The position numbers were made by a program, and so were the translations under genes. 64,000 nucleotides of DNA, from positions 124,578-188,577 of the forward strand of contig CAWKKS010000002.1 in NCBI GenBank assembly GCA_963850385.1. The letters are read 5' to 3'. Each line of letters opens with the position of its first letter. Position 1 is the stretch's first letter. Below, piece after piece: positions 7,705 to 14,399 of the stretch. The stretch is from Candidatus Dormiibacterota bacterium. GTDB taxonomy: Bacteria; Chloroflexota; Dormibacteria; Aeolococcales; Aeolococcaceae. A model generated the notes under the pieces. It searched no databases. It was not told where the DNA came from and worked only from the letters and a program-made list of their open reading frames with translations.

Positions 7705-8228
7705 GTGGAGGGGTCACCGCCGTGCGCGGCGGGGGCCGGCAGGGTGCGCAGGGTCAGGACACCGACAAGGATGCCGATGACGATGGCCATGTCGGCGACG
7801 TTGAAGACCGGCCAGCGCTGCAGGTCGATGAAATCGACGACATATCCCTGGACCACGCGGTCGACGGCATTGGCCAGCGCACCGCCGAGGACCATGCCGA
7901 GAAGCACCTGAGGGAAGAGGCCGGGGCCGAACCGCCGGCCGGCGATGAGGATGTAGCCCGCCACCGCCACCGCCACCGCCAGGAAGATGAACTGCAGCTG
8001 CGGGAAGGCCCCGAAGGCAGCGCCGCGGTTCTCGATGTGATGGATGGTGAGCGGTCCGCTGCTGGGCACCTGGTGACCGAGGCCGATGTTCTGGGTCACC
8101 ACCCACTTGGTCAGGTGATCGACCACGAACACCACCGCCGCGGTGCTGAGCAGCACTGCCAGCTGCTGCCTGCGCCCTGGCAACGACAGGCCGCGGTCCG
8201 CAGCCTCTGACATCGCCGGTTCGCTCAT
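7701..8228 (-). CDS. lspA: Lipoprotein signal peptidase II
   Basis: DHLTKW, NRGAAFG, GALANAVDR, VVDFID, FNVADMAI; start at 8228 or 8213. Confidence 0.93.
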   Translation of the reverse strand: MSEPAMSEAADRGLSLPGRRQQLAVLLSTAAVVFVVDHLTKWVVTQNIGLGHQVPSSGPLTIHHIENRGAAFGAFPQLQFIFLAVAVAVAGYILIAGRRFGPGLFPQVLLGMVLGGALANAVDRVVQGYVVDFIDLQRWPVFNVADMAIVIGILVGVLTLRTLPAPAAHGGDPST

Positions 8229-8256
8229 GGTGTGCTCAGGATAGCCTCGAGCCTGG

Positions 8257-8982
8257 TCATGCCCCGCCCCTCGGCCGGTCGCCGAAGAGCACGCGCCCGA
8301 GGCGAATGACGGTCGCGCCGTGAGCGATGGCAACCTCGAAGTCGTTGCTCATCCCCATGCTGAGATCGGGAAGAGAGAACCCCTGGTCGTGCTCGAGGAT
8401 CGCGCGAAGCTGGTGCAGGCGGGCGAAGCACGCGGACGCCGCCTCCGCCGACCCGGGCGGCGCGATCGTCATCAGGCCCTGCACCGCCATGGCGGGGAGG
8501 CCTCGCACGTGGGTCAGCAAAGCCGCGGCGGCCGCCGGCGTGACCCCGGACCGGCCCGCGATGCCCGTCATCTCCACCTCGACGAAGACCCGCAGCGGCG
8601 GCCCGTCCCCCGGGCGGTGCCGCGCCAGCACGCCGGCCAGCGCGGCGCTGTCGACGGAGTGCACGGTGTCGAAGAGGCGTGCCGCCGTGCCCGCCTTGTT
8701 GCGCTGGAGATGACCGACCATGTGCCAGCTCAGCGCCGCACCACGGTATGCGTCGATCTTCGCCTGCGCCTCCTGCACGCGGCTCTCGCCGACATCGCCC
8801 AGCCCAAGTCGCGCCGCCGCGGTCACCGCGTCGACGCCGTGCCCCTTGGTCACCGCCAGGAGCAGGACCGACGCCGGGTCGCGTCCGGCGGTCTCCGCTG
8901 CGCGCGCCACGCGCGCGCGCACCGCGCCCAGCCGCTCGGCGATCGCGTCGAGGGCGAGATCGGTCACCGGGTGCGGCGGCAT
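8257..8982 (-). CDS. yggS: YggS/PROSC PLP-homeostasis protein
   Basis: LLAVTK, GESRVQEA, WHMVGHLQRNK, GLMTI, LSMGMSNDFEVAI, IRLGRVLFG. Confidence 0.93.
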   Translation of the reverse strand: MPPHPVTDLALDAIAERLGAVRARVARAAETAGRDPASVLLLAVTKGHGVDAVTAAARLGLGDVGESRVQEAQAKIDAYRGAALSWHMVGHLQRNKAGTAARLFDTVHSVDSAALAGVLARHRPGDGPPLRVFVEVEMTGIAGRSGVTPAAAAALLTHVRGLPAMAVQGLMTIAPPGSAEAASACFARLHQLRAILEHDQGFSLPDLSMGMSNDFEVAIAHGATVIRLGRVLFGDRPRGGA

Positions 8983-9001
8983 GGGCGAGGCGCGCGCCGG
9001 C

Positions 9002-9541
9002 TCACTTGCCCATGTCGAGGGGTAGCTCGCGACCGTCGTCTGCTCCGCGGCGGCGGCGGCGCGGAGGCTCGGGTGGCCTGGTCCCCGGGGGGTTGGCGAG
9101 CACGTCCTCGATGGTTGCCCGCATCTGCTCGACGTCTCGGAAAGACCGGTACACCGACGCAAACCGCACGTACGCGATCTCGTCGAGGGTGCGCAGGTGC
9201 TGCATCACCATCTCGCCGACCTCACGGCTGCGCACCTCGGTGACGTTGCGCGAGCGCAGAGCGTTCTCGATGTCATCCACCAGGGCCTCGAGCTGAGCTG
9301 AGGCGATGTCGCGTTTGGTCGACGCGTTGACGAGCCCACCGAGCAGCTTGCGACGGTTGAACTCCTCGCGTCTGCCATCCTTCTTGACCACCCACAGGGG
9401 CACGGCCTCGACGCGCTCGTAGGTGGTGAAACGCTTGTGGCAGGAAAGGCATTCCCGCCGTCGGCGGATCGCCTCACCGGTCTCGGAGTCGCGTGAGTCG
9501 ACGACCTTGGACTCGGGCTGCGAGCAGTAGGGGCACTTCAT
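9002..9541 (-). CDS. nrdR: Transcriptional repressor NrdR
   Basis: MKCPYC..KVVDSR..IRRRRECLSCHKRFTTYE, ATP-cone domain, AYVRFASVYRSF. Confidence 0.98.
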   Translation of the reverse strand: MKCPYCSQPESKVVDSRDSETGEAIRRRRECLSCHKRFTTYERVEAVPLWVVKKDGRREEFNRRKLLGGLVNASTKRDIASAQLEALVDDIENALRSRNVTEVRSREVGEMVMQHLRTLDEIAYVRFASVYRSFRDVEQMRATIEDVLANPPGTRPPEPPRRRRRGADDGRELPLDMGK

Positions 9542-9552
9542 GACACGACCGG

Positions 9553-9579
9553 GCCGCCCCCCGCGTCGCGGGGGGCGGC
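9553..9579. other. Perfect 13-bp inverted repeat (hairpin) between ftsZ and nrdR
   Basis: GCCGCCCCCCGCG-T-CGCGGGGGGCGGC; no U-tract on either side. Confidence 0.75.
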
Positions 9580-9598
9580 AGCAGCTTGAAGCAGCGCT

Positions 9599-10699
9599 CT
9601 ACCTGCGATCGCGGAGGAACGCCGGGATGTCGAGGTCATCCGCGTTGGCCGGTGTGGCCGAGCGCCCACCGATGGTGAACGCCGGGGCCGCGGGGGTCAC
9701 CGGCCGCGCCGCCGGCTCGTACGCGAGGGTGCCGAGCACGTCGATGTGCCCGGTGAACCCGGTGGCGATCACGGTGATCTTCACCTCGCCCTTCATCTGC
9801 TCGTCGATGACGGTGCCGAAGATGATCTGGGCGTCCGGGTCGGCGAACTCGCTGACCAGTTGGGCCGCCTCGTTGACCTCGTAGAGGGTGAGGTCGGGCC
9901 CACCGGTGACGTTGAGCAGGATGCCCTTGGCGCCCGCGATGGTGGTCTCGAGCAGCGGGCTCGCCACCGCGTCGCGGGCGGCGTCGGCGGCACGCGTGTC
10001 CCCGTTGCCGAAGCCGATGCCCATGAGGGCGGCGCCCTGGCCCGACATGATCGCCTTGACGTCGGCGAAGTCGAGGTTGATCAGCCCGGGGAAGACGATG
10101 AGGTCGCTGATGCCCTGGACGCCCTGGCGGAGAACGTCATCCGCCAACTTGAACGCCTCGGTGATCGGGGTGCGCTTGTCGACCACCTGCATGAGCCGCT
10201 CGTTGGGGATGGTGATGAGGGTGTCGACGCGACCCTGCAGGTTGGCGATGCCGTCATCCGCGGCACGCTGGCGCTTCAGGCCCTCGAACTTGAACGGCTT
10301 GGTGACCACCCCGATGGTCAGCGCGCCCTGCTCGCGGGCGATCTCTGCGATGGCCGGCGCGGCGCCGGTGCCGGTGCCGCCCCCCATGCCGGCGGTGACG
10401 AACACCATGTCGCAGTCGGCGAGCAGCTTGGTCAGCTCCTCGCGCGTCTCCTCGGCCGCCTCGGCGCCGCGCAGCGGGTCACCGCCCGCCCCCAGGCCAC
10501 GAGTCAGCTTCGAGCCGATGCGCACCTTCTTGTGCGCGTTGCTCAGCTGCAGCGCCTGGTGGTCGGTGTTGACCGCGATGAACTCGACCCCCTTGAGGCG
10601 GCTCTGGATCATGCGGTTGACGGCGTTGCTGCCGCCGCCACCGACGCCGACCACCTTGATGCGCGCGTTTCCTTCCAATGTCCGGTCGAGGTCGTTCAT
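9599..10699 (-). CDS. ftsZ: Cell division protein FtsZ
   Basis: [42 protein letters not shown] tail; GAGGAG SD. Confidence 0.98.
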
Positions 10700-10835
10700 G
10701 GGCGTCTCCTCACGCTGCCTGCTCTTCGGACGCAGCGAAAACTTGCCCGCACGCGTCGTTTCATCATCGTTGCCACGACCGACGGGTTCATCCGCCGGCG
10801 CGTCGCCGTCGTCAAGCCCGTACAACTTCATCCGT

Positions 10836-12074
10836 TCAGAAAAGTTCACGCAACCACCGTCCAAATCGATCACCGACGTGCTGTCCATTGCCGTTCTGCG
10901 CCCTGCCGGTGAGGTCGACGCTGCGCCCCGACCGCCCGCGCGCGCCCCAGCGGAGCAGGCCCACCACGGTCGCGTGGTGTGGTCCGCTGATCTCATCGTT
11001 CATCCCGTGCACGCCGGTCGGCGCCGCCACGCGCGCCGGCAGGTCGGTGACCTGCTGGATCACCTCAACGAAGCCGCGCAGCAGGGCGCCCCCACCGGTG
11101 AGGACGATGCCACCGGGGAAGCTGCTCGGTGGTCCCGCCATCTCCACCTGCTCGGCGATCAACTGGGCCATCTCCCGAGCGCGCGGCCCGATGATCTCGG
11201 CGAGGAACCGCTGCGGCACGTTGACAGGCTCGTCGTAGCCCATCGGGAGGAGCTTCACCTCGGCGTCGGCGGGCAGCGTCAACTGCAGGCAGTGCCCGTA
11301 CGCGCGCTTGGTCGCCTCGGCGGTCTCCAGGTCACAGCGCAGCCCCACGGCGAGGTCGCCGCTGACGTGGTTGCCGCCCACGGGTATGACCGCGGTGTGG
11401 ATGATGCTGCCCTTGGCAAAAACTGCCACGTCAGTGGTGCCGCCGCCGATGTCGGCGACCACCACGCCACGGTCGAGCTCGTCCTCGCCGATCACCGCCT
11501 CGGCCGAGGCGAGCACCTGCAGGACCAGGTCATCGACATCGAGCCCGGCCTTGTGCACCACCTTGACCACGTTCTGGATGGCCGTGTTGGTGCCGGTGAT
11601 GATGTGGGCGTCGACCTCGAGCCGAGTGCCGGCCATGCCCAGGGCGTCGCGCACCCCCTGCTGGCCGTCGATGGTGAACTGCTGTGGCAGCACGTGGAGG
11701 ATCTTGCGATCCGATGGCACGCTGACCGCGCGCGCGGCCTCGACCGCACGGGTGACGTCGGCATCGCGCACCTCACGGTGACCCGCCGACACGGCGACCA
11801 CGCCTCGCGAGTTCTGCGAGGTGATGCTGGTGCCGGCGAGGCCGACCACCGCCGAATCGACGGGGACCCCGCTCATCTGCTCGGCGAGGTCCACAGCCTC
11901 GGCCACCGCCTCAGCCGCCCGGTCGATCTCGATGATCGCGCCCTTGCGAATGCCCCGCGAGGGCGCCTCGCCCACACCGAGGACACGCAACCCGGTGCTG
12001 TCCAACTCGGCGATGGCGCAGCAGACCTTCGTCGTTCCTAGATCGAGTGCAAAGACGCGGCGAGAACGGGTCAC
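10836..12074 (-). CDS. ftsA: Cell division protein FtsA
   Basis: [25 protein letters not shown]-terminal amphipathic RWLRELF; GGAGG SD. Confidence 0.96.
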
Positions 12075-12133
12075 ACTGGCCTCCGAGTATAGCCGGAGCC
12101 CTCACCTAAAGAAAGGGGTTGTCACGGGCAAAA

Positions 12134-12181
12134 CCGCAAGATGCTGAGTTTGCCGCCGGAGTATGCCACAAGATGTGGCCT
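12134..12181 (-). promoter_or_regulatory. Putative ftsA promoter (extended -10 TGgCATACT) with two NrdR-box-like sites
   Basis: AGGCCACATCTTGTGG (12166-12181) and ACTCAGCATCTTGCGG (12134-12149), 32 bp apart; -10 hexamer at 12160-12165. Confidence 0.6.
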
Positions 12182-12405
12182 GTCCCCGCCCAGGGCCGGG
12201 CCGCTTCAAATGCATCGAAACCACCCATCATCAGGGTGGGGTGGGCGCCCCGGTCAAGGCCGTCAGCCGGCCGCGCCGGTGGCCACGAGACCGCTCGCGG
12301 GCGGGGCCTCGCCGCCTGCACCTCCCGGCGAGACCCCACCGGCCGCAGCCCGGTCGGGCTGGGCAGGCGGGCATCATCGCACCGGCGGCGGCGGCTGTGA
12401 ACGGA

Positions 12406-13455
12406 TCAGGACGGCGGGGTCAGCACCAGCTTCCCGCGCTGCTCGCCGCGGACCAGCTCGGCGAAGGCGTCGGCCGCCTCGCCCAGCGGCCGCACCGAGT
12501 CGACGAGCGGGGTCAGCGTCCCCGTCGAGCACAGCTCGACCAGCCGGGCCAGCTCCGCGCGCGTCCCCATGCTGCTGCCGGCGACGGTCAGATGGCGCCA
12601 GAAGATCCGGTTGAGCTGGGCCGGCGGGTTGGCTCCCGCGGTGGCGCCGGAGACCACCAGCGTACCTCCCGGCCGCAGCGCGCGGAGCGAGAAGTCCCAG
12701 GTGGCCTCGCCCACGGTGTCGACCACCACGTCCACACCGCCATCGCTTGCCGCCAGCACCCGCTTCAGGTCGTCGCGCTCGACCGCGAACGCTGCCGTCG
12801 CGCCCAGCTCCAGCGCGGTGGCGCGCTTCTCCTCCGTGCGGGAGGTGGCGAAGACGGTCAACCCCGCGGCGGCGCCGAGGATGATGGCAGCGCTGGCGAC
12901 GCCGCCCGTGGCCCCGTGGACGAGGATGCGCTGCCCCGGCTGCAGAGCGCCGCGGACGAAGAGCATGCGGTAGGCGGTCAGGTAGGCGGTGGGCAGGCAC
13001 GCGGCCGTGGTCACGTCGACGGTGGCGGGGAGCGGCAGGATGTTGCCCACCGGGACCACCAGGCGCGCGGCGAGCGTGCCCGGGTACGGCGGCTCGCTGA
13101 GCAGGCCGATGTGCGGGCAGTGGAGCTCGTCGCGGTTGCGGCACGCGCTGCAGTGCCCGCAGGTCATCACGCCGTGCACGACCACCGTCGCCCCGACCGG
13201 CGGCGCACCCACCGGGTCAGTACCGTCGCCGTACTCGAGCACGGTTCCGGCGGCGTCACAGCCGAGCACCTGCGCCTCCTTGAGGGGGCGCGAGCCGACG
13301 CCGCGCAGCGTCCACAGGTCGTGGTGGTTGAGCGACGCCGCGCCCACCGCCAGGAGCACCTCGCCCGTTCCCGGCCTCGGGTCGGGCAGCTCGACGAGCT
13401 CGAGGTTGGCGAGCGGGTCGTCGCCACCGAAGCGGGCGGCGCGGACTGCGAGCAC
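12406..13455 (-). CDS. Zinc-binding alcohol dehydrogenase / quinone oxidoreductase (MDR family)
   Basis: SLNHHDL, GCDAAG, CGHCSAC, HGATGGVA, GSSMGT. Confidence 0.9.
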   Translation of the reverse strand: MLAVRAARFGGDDPLANLELVELPDPRPGTGEVLLAVGAASLNHHDLWTLRGVGSRPLKEAQVLGCDAAGTVLEYGDGTDPVGAPPVGATVVVHGVMTCGHCSACRNRDELHCPHIGLLSEPPYPGTLAARLVVPVGNILPLPATVDVTTAACLPTAYLTAYRMLFVRGALQPGQRILVHGATGGVASAAIILGAAAGLTVFATSRTEEKRATALELGATAAFAVERDDLKRVLAASDGGVDVVVDTVGEATWDFSLRALRPGGTLVVSGATAGANPPAQLNRIFWRHLTVAGSSMGTRAELARLVELCSTGTLTPLVDSVRPLGEAADAFAELVRGEQRGKLVLTPPS

Positions 13456-13511
13456 GGGCCAACGGTACCATCGCGCCCGTTGGTGGCCGAGGATGCCCTT
13501 ACCATCGCGAC

Positions 13512-14399
13512 ATGCGCATCGACAGCCTTTTCGCGCGGGGTGAACCACTCTTCTCGTTCGAGTTCTTTCCGCCCCGCGACGACGATGGCGCCGAGCGACT
13601 CTTCGCGACCATCGCCGCGCTGCGTGACCTCGAGCCGGCCTACGTCTCGGTCACGCACGGGGCCGGCGGCAGCGCGCGCGACGAGCGCACCGTACGCCTG
13701 GTCAAGCGCATCCGCGAGGAGACCGGTCTTCTCCCGATGGCCCACCTGACCTGCCGCGACTCGACGGTCGACGAGCTCGTCGGCGAGATCCGTCAGTACC
13801 AGGCGTTCGGCGTCGAGAACGTCCTGGCCATCCGTGGCGACCCTCCCGACGGCGCCGGGTCGTTCAGCGCACCGGAGGGTGGCCTGCGGTTCGCCAGCGA
13901 GCTGGTGCGTCTTCTGCGCGAGAACGCCGACATGTGCGTGGTCGCCGCGTGCTCACCGGAGAAGCACATCGAGTCCCCCACGCTCGAGCAGGACGTGGCG
14001 GCGGCACTGGAGAAGGTGCAGGCGGGTGCCAGCTTCCTGATCACCCAGTTGTTCTTCGACAACCGCGCGTACTTCGACTTCGTGGTGCGCGCGCGCGCCG
14101 CAGGGGTCTCGGTGCCGATCGTGCCCGGCATCATGCCGATCACCAACGTCGACCAGGTGTACCGGTTCACCGCCAAGATCGGCGCCTCCATCCCGCCGGC
14201 GTTGCGCGACGCGCTCAGTGACCGCAGCGACGACGCCGCGGCGGTGCTGCAGCTCGGCGTCGCCTGGGCGACCCTGCAGTGCAGTCAGCTGCTGCGCGCC
14301 GGCGCCCCGGGCATCCACTTCATCACCCTCAACCGCTCGCCGGCGACGCGCGCCATCCTCACCGCGCTGCGCATCGCCCGCCCGTGGGAGGGGGTCTGA
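13512..14399 (+). CDS. metF: 5,10-methylenetetrahydrofolate reductase
   Basis: SFEFFPP, YVSVTHGAGG, AHLTC, LAIRGDPP, ITQLFFD, GIHFITLNR. Confidence 0.96.
   Translation: MRIDSLFARGEPLFSFEFFPPRDDDGAERLFATIAALRDLEPAYVSVTHGAGGSARDERTVRLVKRIREETGLLPMAHLTCRDSTVDELVGEIRQYQAFGVENVLAIRGDPPDGAGSFSAPEGGLRFASELVRLLRENADMCVVAACSPEKHIESPTLEQDVAAALEKVQAGASFLITQLFFDNRAYFDFVVRARAAGVSVPIVPGIMPITNVDQVYRFTAKIGASIPPALRDALSDRSDDAAAVLQLGVAWATLQCSQLLRAGAPGIHFITLNRSPATRAILTALRIARPWEGV

Follow-up and report, generated by a model that had tools for sequence, protein, structure and literature searches.

The stretch of 64,000 nucleotides described here (the window) corresponds to C2:124578-188577 of a 2.49 Mb assembly of a Candidatus Dormiibacterota bacterium (70% G+C, 85.6% complete), the lineage of which is placed as a class inside the Chloroflexota in the genome collection that we used. 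On the minus strand, Pfam assignments give the gene order alcohol dehydrogenase (ADH), ftsA, ftsZ, nrdR, yggS, lspA, rluD and gmk. Two 16-mers lie upstream of ftsA on the same strand, AGGCCACATCTTGTGG (12181-12166) and ACTCAGCATCTTGCGG (12149-12134). Their starts are 32 bp apart and a linker of 16 bp separates them, the context of the whole element being ...GGGGAC AGGCCACATCTTGTGG CATACTCCGGCGGCAA ACTCAGCATCTTGCGG TTTTGCC.... Judging from its sequence, this pair is with high probability a real operator of the nucleotide sensor NrdR. The initial annotation of this DNA had described the 16-mers as NrdR boxes that match six and five of the six conserved consensus positions, had noted that nrdR lies directly behind ftsZ, and had stated that the window holds no ribonucleotide reductase (RNR) gene. 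All of this is borne out by the sequence and by the Pfam gene order.

The RNR genes of the assembly are easily listed. No nrd gene other than nrdR was found within the window, and no RNR small-subunit gene was found in the assembly. The sole RNR gene is nrdJ (class II-type; C2:468150-471027), about 330 kb away on the same contig. The genes downstream of the ftsA operator, namely ftsA, ftsZ, nrdR and yggS, are not the RNR operon that the known NrdR regulons would lead one to expect. This concerns the content of the regulon and not whether the DNA is an NrdR site. The yggS gene is found behind nrdR at the equivalent position in most close relatives, and the NrdR relatives at 69-93% identity all belong to Candidatus Dormiibacterota.

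Comparison with known NrdR sites

A mutational study published in 2026 showed that C4 and G13, with 8 bp between them, are critical in the 16-bp NrdR box and that A6 and T11 are important, that at least 63% A/T is required between C4 and G13, and that the linker of 15-16 bp is constrained in length and not in sequence (PMC13584703). Both ftsA boxes have the 8-bp separation of C4 and G13 (AGGC-CACATCTT-GTGG and ACTC-AGCATCTT-GCGG), and in each of them five of the eight intervening positions are A or T, which is exactly at the published lower limit. Of A6, A8, T9 and T11, box 1 has all four and box 2 has three, with G at position 6. The box centres are 32 bp apart and the linker has a length within the published range. 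As far as their letters go, both 16-mers thus carry the features published for a working NrdR site, the sole deviation being G6 in box 2. When A6G was introduced into both boxes of a synthetic site, the loss of affinity ranged from 4-fold for S. coelicolor NrdR to 10-fold for E. coli NrdR (PMC13584703); in the window's family, G6 of box 2 is common to most genera. The NrdR encoded here has a CPYC...CLSC zinc ribbon (MKCPYCSQPESKVVDSRDS...CLSC), an ATP-cone, and Asp15 and Arg17, the residues that read C4 and G13 in S. coelicolor NrdR (PMC13584703).

The nrdJ gene provides a yardstick within the same genome. Its operator is GGCCAACATATGGGGG-N16-CCCCAAGATGTGGGAT, also 32 bp from start to start, and the reverse complement of its second box, ATCCCACATCTTGGGG, is identical to ftsA box 1 at 13 of 16 positions. 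The second nrdJ box runs into TGGGATAAT. In several relatives (nrdJ loci G102:C104, G041:C31, G074:C16, G112:C17, G130:C6 and G147:C34) the catalytic domain is split in two matches within open frames of 1245-2170 aa, a pattern suggestive of inteins inserted in the gene for the reductase.

Scores and rarity of the paired boxes

The initial annotation had proposed scoring the sites with a matrix built from nrdJ promoters, and this was done. The weight matrix was trained on the nrdJ upstream regions of 40 Dormibacteria loci, 32 of which had a clear pair, together with the nrdJ pair of this genome, and was symmetrised. The ftsA sites were kept out of the training because circularity was to be avoided. 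The ftsA boxes score like real sites, with 13.45 for box 1 and 10.7 for box 2, where the training boxes have a median of 17.5, a 10th percentile of 13.1 and a minimum of 6.0. As single positions such scores are not unique, since 21 positions in the whole genome reach 13.45 and 82 reach 10.7. As pairs they are rare: with a cut-off that demanded a sum of at least 16, at least 5 for both boxes and a spacing of 31 or 32 bp, the matrix found five pairs in 2.49 Mb, every one of them at 32 bp (Table 1). At a stricter cut-off there were four pairs at the spacing of 32 bp versus two pairs over 28 control spacings (20-49 bp), or about 0.07 pairs per control spacing per genome. By the criterion of the six conserved positions, just four pairs in 2.49 Mb have at least 11 of 12 with the 32-bp spacing, and the paired pattern has one match in the 64-kb window and none in 100 shuffles. 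A chance origin of the pair is excluded.

Two further loci drew attention in these scans. A pair within a coding sequence, at C1:355344, satisfied the crude six-position filter but not the weight matrix, and was dropped as chance. At C1:969820-969856 there is a 37-bp near-perfect palindrome, ATACGAGATGTTGCATCCGAGATGCGAGATATCGTAT, with two NrdR-like cores that are 21 bp apart, which is not an NrdR spacing.

Table 1. Features of the ftsA-ftsZ-nrdR locus (window coordinates) and the five NrdR box pairs of the assembly
Feature	Position	Strand	Basis or remark
NrdR box 1, AGGCCACATCTTGTGG	12166..12181	-	6/6 conserved positions (C4 A6 A8 T9 T11 G13)
NrdR box 2, ACTCAGCATCTTGCGG	12134..12149	-	5/6 conserved positions, G at position 6
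Inter-box linker, CATACTCCGGCGGCAA, 16 bp	12150..12165	-	Length kept (16 bp, once 15), sequence 47% identical across genera
Candidate distal extended -10, TGGCATACT	12160..12168	-	Putative, from reading the sequence; abuts/overlaps 3' end of box 1
Proximal TATACT, probable conserved -10 for near-leaderless ftsA mRNA	12086..12091	-	In all 18 family sequences
Shine-Dalgarno GGAGG, 5 nt before GTG start	12080..12084	-	Reading of the sequence
ftsA, 412 aa, GTG start	10836..12074	-	Pfam FtsA and SHS2_FTSA
ftsZ, ATG at 10831, 4 nt past ftsA stop	9599..10831	-	Pfam Tubulin and FtsZ_C; probable start, from open reading frame (ORF) translation and tblastn of relatives
12-bp GC hairpin in 57-bp ftsZ-nrdR gap, without U tract	9553..9579	-	RNA fold
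nrdR, 179 aa	9002..9541	-	Pfam Zn_ribbon_NrdR (PF22811) and ATP-cone (PF03477)
yggS/ylmE-type PLP-binding protein, directly behind nrdR	8257..8960, true start uncertain (~8960)	-	Pfam Ala_racemase_N, residues 78-297 of long ORF
Zinc-type alcohol dehydrogenase	12406-13548	-	Pfam
Box pair at nrdJ			Pair score 34.35 (nrdJ-trained matrix)
Box pair before smc	C1:1340931-1340978		Pair score 27.25
Box pair before IMPDH-domain gene, then guaA	C1:61769-61816		Pair score 25.36
Box pair before 139-aa membrane ORF and ArsA-type ATPase	C1:100197-100244		Pair score 24.58
Box pair at ftsA			Pair score 24.15, fifth of five

Conservation in the window's family

The ftsA regions of 49 Dormibacteria and 11 other Chloroflexota genomes were compared, taking a score of about 11 or more as a good single box. 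Five named Dormiibacterota loci from the search for NrdR relatives overlap this genome set and are not independent of it. The loci of the best NrdR relatives outside the Dormibacterota (L007-L081, n=75) were not used for footprinting because ftsZ is near in only a few of them, of Firmicutes type. In the window's family (17 loci from 14 genera) a strong ftsA pair is present at 14 of the 17 loci and in 12 of the 14 genera, with scores of 22.5-36.9. It starts 105-116 bp before the ftsA start (typically about 107 bp, and 86 bp in one locus), and in the 14 loci the spacing is 32 bp, once 31. The exceptions are one genus in which the second box is shifted by 1 bp and one genus, represented by two genomes, without boxes. 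The pair and its spacing are therefore kept across the lineage while the neighbouring DNA drifts, a check that the initial annotation had named. Among 11 genera the mean pairwise identity is 0.30 in the 30 bp upstream, 0.47 in the linker and 0.46 in the 30 bp downstream, whereas it is 0.70 in box 1 (0.97 at the six core positions) and 0.80 in box 2 (0.90 at the core). Box 2 is flanked by conserved GCAAAC and TTTTGC.

In genus g61 of the same family (L097 and L098, with small genomes of 1.9-2.0 Mb) the boxes of both ftsA and smc have been lost and the IMPDH-like gene is absent. The nrdJ operator is still present, as is a strong pair at the ArsA-like operon in the one genome checked for it, G090. 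Going by its sequence, nrdR of g61 would be left without a recognisable autoregulatory site.

It could be argued that the 16-mers are not NrdR sites at all, and that they are a chance likeness or are kept for another factor or as an RNA element. Box 2 does deviate at A6, is conserved beyond what NrdR should need and has the extended flanks GCAAAC...TTTTGC, and the pair score is the lowest of the five. The shuffles and control spacings described above speak against this explanation, as does the fact that the conserved positions are exactly the NrdR core and that spacing and motif match the operators of nrdJ, smc and the gua genes. An RNA element in the ftsA leader was rejected, as the putative leader has no significant fold (z = 0.0) and no Rfam match at E up to 1. 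We regard a non-NrdR origin as very improbable.

Distribution across families

Other Dormibacteria families place their boxes differently. In a second family (14 loci), 12 loci have a good single box (about 11-16.5) located 8-30 bp before a TATAAT/TATACT hexamer, with a weaker partner 31 bp upstream. This box covers the -35 region of the promoter of ftsA, and a leader of ~60 nt with CCAGGAGG follows. The ftsZ-nrdR gaps of the second family are 15-60 bp long and box-free, although in one genome a box of its own lies before nrdR instead. In a third family (7 loci) there are no boxes before ftsA, and all seven have a box scoring ~19 that is located 27-28 bp before nrdR and runs into GGGATACT. In the third family (L105-L111) nrdR thus has a promoter of its own; 31 bp downstream of the strong box there is a weaker partner, which extends over the start codon and the first codons of nrdR. 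In a fourth family (5 loci) there are likewise none before ftsA, and 5/5 have a box scoring 14.5-18.4 located 39 bp before nrdR. No strong ftsA pair was found in a sister family that belongs to the same taxonomic order and has no nrdR behind ftsZ (6 loci), where the best pair scores 19.0 with one box at 5.0 and lies 271 bp upstream. Among the 11 genomes of other Chloroflexota no pair was found before ftsA, and the sole genome with nrdR behind ftsZ has its pair (36.4) before nrdR. In the window's family, for comparison, the ftsZ-nrdR gap is 22-99 bp long and none of 15 loci has a box above 6.1 in it.

Across the families compared, boxes thus lie before ftsA or directly before nrdR and never at both places, and there are none at ftsA if nrdR is outside the operon. 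This complementary distribution is the main argument that NrdR is autoregulated via the ftsA operator. It appears from these sequence comparisons that the operator most likely gives NrdR control over ftsA-ftsZ as well as over its own gene, and that cell division is probably wired to the nucleotide supply. The operator seems to have shifted away from nrdR itself and to the front of the operon that contains this gene.

Other putative targets of NrdR

The pair before smc is present at 11 of 12 loci of the window's family, with scores of 28-35 and ~80 bp before the start, and also at one or two loci of a sister family. In this genome it lies 32-80 bp before smc, and its second box ends in TTGACG, the -35 hexamer of a promoter with a textbook leaderless layout (TTGACG, 18 bp, GAGAAT, 7 bp, ATG). 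The smc frame of this assembly breaks at ~430 aa into low-complexity sequence, for which a frameshift or an assembly error is the likely cause. The pair before the IMPDH-domain gene and guaA is found at all 13 family loci (15-31.5) and at two sister-family loci. The pair at the ArsA operon is found at 10 of 16 family loci and at 2/2 sister-family loci, and some sites may lie beyond the 900 bp examined. The first ORF of that operon encodes a basic, C-terminally membrane-anchored protein of 139 aa without a Pfam match, and the next gene encodes an ArsA-type ATPase that has an HSP20-like tail. On the strength of these sites, NrdR in the window's family appears to co-ordinate the synthesis of dNTPs and of GMP with the condensation of the chromosome and with division.

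Promoter layout and proposed mechanism

The best explanation of the locus as a whole, which we consider fairly likely on the sequence data, combines a genuine NrdR operator, repression, two promoters and read-through into nrdR. NrdR loaded with dATP and ATP would bind both boxes as a tetramer and would lower transcription from the ftsA upstream region, most directly at the distal extended -10 (TGGCATACT), with box 2 lying just past the predicted start site of this distal promoter. Expression of nrdR, and probably of yggS too, would result from read-through of the ftsA-ftsZ transcript, because the 57-bp gap between ftsZ and nrdR has neither a box nor a promoter-like hexamer, and if so the ftsA operator would also be the autoregulatory site of NrdR. 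The proximal TATACT is not covered by the boxes and probably supplies basal expression of ftsA-ftsZ, so that NrdR would modulate essential division genes and not switch them off. The placement of NrdR at the ftsA promoter region, its autoregulation and the tie between ftsA/ftsZ and the sensor had all been suggested in the initial annotation, and the matrix, the conservation, the box-free gap and the complementary distribution argue in their favour.

The promoter geometry that it had described stands only in part. The candidate extended -10 TGGCATACT does overlap box 1 in this genome, and the nrdJ operator has an equivalent overlap (TGTGGGATAAT), in which the 3' end of the box supplies the TG of the extended -10. 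However, an A2/T6 hexamer at the place of the distal -10 is present at just 8 of the 16 box-bearing family loci (5/13 genera), whereas the invariant proximal hexamer is clear of the boxes. All 18 family sequences, the box-less ones among them, have a hexamer of the TAYASW type (TATACT, TACACT or TATAGT) that lies 11-14 nt upstream of the start codon (11 nt in this genome) and has the look of a conserved -10 for an mRNA that is nearly leaderless. The distance from box 2 to TATACT is 41-43 bp in 15 of 16 loci (42 bp here); in L088 it is 20 bp, and this difference of 22 bp is ~two helical turns. A Shine-Dalgarno sequence before ftsA is present at 7/8 loci and in 4/5 genera that have the distal -10 versus 0/8 genera that lack it. 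This co-occurrence (Fisher by genus ~0.007, which is indicative only since the genera are related) would agree with two transcripts, a distal one that has a leader and a proximal one that is nearly leaderless. The consensus sigma-70 scan found no promoter at the boxes; the scan needs both hexamers and hence misses extended -10 promoters. There is no convincing -35 for either -10 in this genome; TTGAC(A/C/G) is seen in some relatives, though inconsistently, at 10-12 bp before box 1. In the putative leader (window 12076-12100, minus strand), CUCCGG/CUCGGAG can pair around TATACT and would hide GGAGG; this complementarity is shared by L090, and the overall fold is not significant (z = 0.0). Further upstream, behind the ADH gene, an 11-bp GC hairpin (GGGGTCTCGCC...GGCGAGGCCCC; window 12303-12337, minus strand) is kept in several relatives, and the equivalent hairpin of L090 is followed by a run of seven T. 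It is probably a terminator that cuts ftsA off from upstream transcription.

Several observations weigh against repression at the distal promoter with read-through into nrdR. The ftsA pair scores lowest among the five pairs of the genome (24.15 vs 34.35 for nrdJ), and the training sites of the matrix were picked by the six conserved positions, so that the weight of these positions is partly built in. The distal -10 has no counterpart in 8 of the 13 box-bearing genera, where the boxes are nonetheless kept, and NrdR must therefore act on something else too, presumably the proximal promoter. If transcription is assumed to start 7 nt past TATACT, the box centres fall near -62 and -94, where a repressor would not usually bind. 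The rigid distance between box 2 and TATACT hints at a face-of-helix coupling with the proximal promoter and not at distal occlusion. Finally, the strong GC hairpin before nrdR could terminate ftsA-ftsZ transcripts, and in one genus (L091) there is a TATAAT-like hexamer within the ftsZ-nrdR gap.

The observations on the proximal promoter lead to an alternate explanation, in which the sites are real NrdR sites and NrdR acts from upstream on the TATACT promoter as an activator or as a helix-face-dependent modulator. Nucleotide-replete NrdR would then turn ftsA-ftsZ-nrdR on and nrdJ off, and division would be held back when dNTPs are short. This would remove the paradox of direction that repression brings, i.e. 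derepression of division genes at low dNTPs. TATACT is invariant in the family while the distal -10 is not, and the sole exception to the fixed box-TATACT distance is off by a near-integral number of helical turns. The box centres inferred above would also be class-I-activator-like, such positions being well established for CRP. On the other hand, these positions depend on an assumed start site, and we know of no contact between NrdR and RNA polymerase. The box over the ftsA -35 region in the second family and in L088 is a repressor layout, and the second smc box contains the -35 hexamer. Activation by NrdR has been reported for topA of P. aeruginosa (PMC4409342), whereas the structural and biochemical studies all treat NrdR as a repressor (PMC9110341, PMC12051234). 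We consider activation an unlikely explanation of the ftsA operator, although one to be kept in mind.

The second concern is the route by which nrdR is transcribed. The hairpin in the 57-bp gap folds with -47.5 kcal/mol for a 91-nt stretch (z = -2.8), and 12 nt (9542-9552) separate its foot from the nrdR ATG (9541). The gap contains no NrdR box and no TANNNT hexamer, and the terminator scan of 8000-12600 called no terminator. The gap sequences of most relatives appear by eye to hold similar GC-rich inverted repeats. In principle the operator could control ftsA-ftsZ only, with the hairpin terminating the transcript and nrdR being transcribed from a promoter hidden in the 3' end of ftsZ, without autoregulation. 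The strength of the hairpin so close to nrdR and the similar repeats in relatives would suit such an arrangement, and in two sister families a repeat of this kind behind ftsZ does precede a promoter that serves nrdR separately. Moreover, nrdR in Proteobacteria was never found to be autoregulated (PMC5343134). However, the hairpin has no U tract, was not called as a terminator and is not accompanied by a -10-like hexamer in the gap. The complementary distribution, in which boxes at ftsA and at nrdR never occur together and, where nrdR follows ftsZ, are never both missing, would also be difficult to account for if the ftsA boxes were not a substitute for those at nrdR, and the sister family without nrdR behind ftsZ is also without the ftsA operator. 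A separate nrdR promoter thus seems to us improbable, slightly more so than activation. Under read-through, the hairpin could dampen transcription into nrdR, keeping nrdR low relative to ftsA-ftsZ, or could stabilise the 3' end of the ftsA-ftsZ transcript.

Discussion

The ftsA operator resembles the NrdR operators of E. coli nrdAB, nrdHIEF and nrdDG and of S. coelicolor nrdAB in having two partially palindromic 16-bp boxes with C4/G13 and the central AT. The 16-bp linker, the three helical turns from centre to centre, the cognate NrdR with zinc ribbon and ATP-cone, and a probable placement in the promoter region are further likenesses to the RNR operators (PMC9110341, PMC12051234, PMC13584703). 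It differs from them in that the controlled genes would be ftsA-ftsZ and not RNR genes, and in that the boxes miss the conserved -10 of the family. In published work, NrdR is described as RNR-specific and as present in about three quarters of bacterial genomes (PMC13584703, PMC9110341), and the NrdR regulons of Proteobacteria average 3.2 genes (PMC5343134).

As regards autoregulation, NrdR often represses its own gene (PMC9110341). The nearest likeness is the nrdR-nrdJ operon of S. coelicolor, where nrdR is in an operon with a box pair at the promoter and is subject to negative autoregulation (PMC4409342). In Streptomyces, however, nrdR is the first gene and has a reductase gene as partner, whereas here it stands third, preceded by two division genes and by a hairpin. 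The two sister families of Dormibacteria with a box directly before nrdR are closer to the Streptomyces layout. For a target outside the RNR genes, the one validated precedent is topA of P. aeruginosa, which has an NrdR box and shows that the regulon can extend to DNA-related genes (PMC4409342). Unlike topA, which has a single box and apparent activation, four non-RNR operons here have a full two-box operator that is conserved in the family. A search of the literature returned nothing on NrdR boxes at ftsA, ftsZ, smc or guaB, or on NrdR in Dormibacterota. The regulator and the operator are canonical, and the novelty lies in the class of targets and in the changed location of the autoregulatory site; specialists would not expect genes of division and chromosome segregation to have a complete operator for NrdR.

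Cytokinesis is coupled to the state of DNA replication in other bacteria by FtsZ inhibitors of the SulA/YneA type, which belong to the SOS response and act post-translationally after DNA damage. By contrast, the coupling in the window's family would be a direct transcriptional control of ftsA-ftsZ by a dATP/ATP sensor. If this holds, it would be the first direct transcriptional coupling of a dNTP/ATP sensor to the machinery of division and chromosome segregation, and it would show how a regulon can grow when an operator is relocated to the head of an operon. The prediction can be tested without culturing the organism, since NrdR proteins recognise sites from other species, both in vitro and in reporter constructs in E. 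coli.

Taken further, the five box pairs raise the possibility that NrdR here is not RNR-specific but a small master regulator of the cell cycle, a dATP/ATP sensor that directly controls five operons via canonical two-box operators. We put this forward tentatively, as a reading that is plausible but on balance still doubtful. At the level of the ftsA operator, the present findings offer a concrete hypothesis for how proliferation may be gated in an uncultured, slow-growing soil lineage. If the reading with five operons is true, nucleotide pools would determine when these slow-growing, dormancy-prone soil bacteria begin to proliferate and when they stop.

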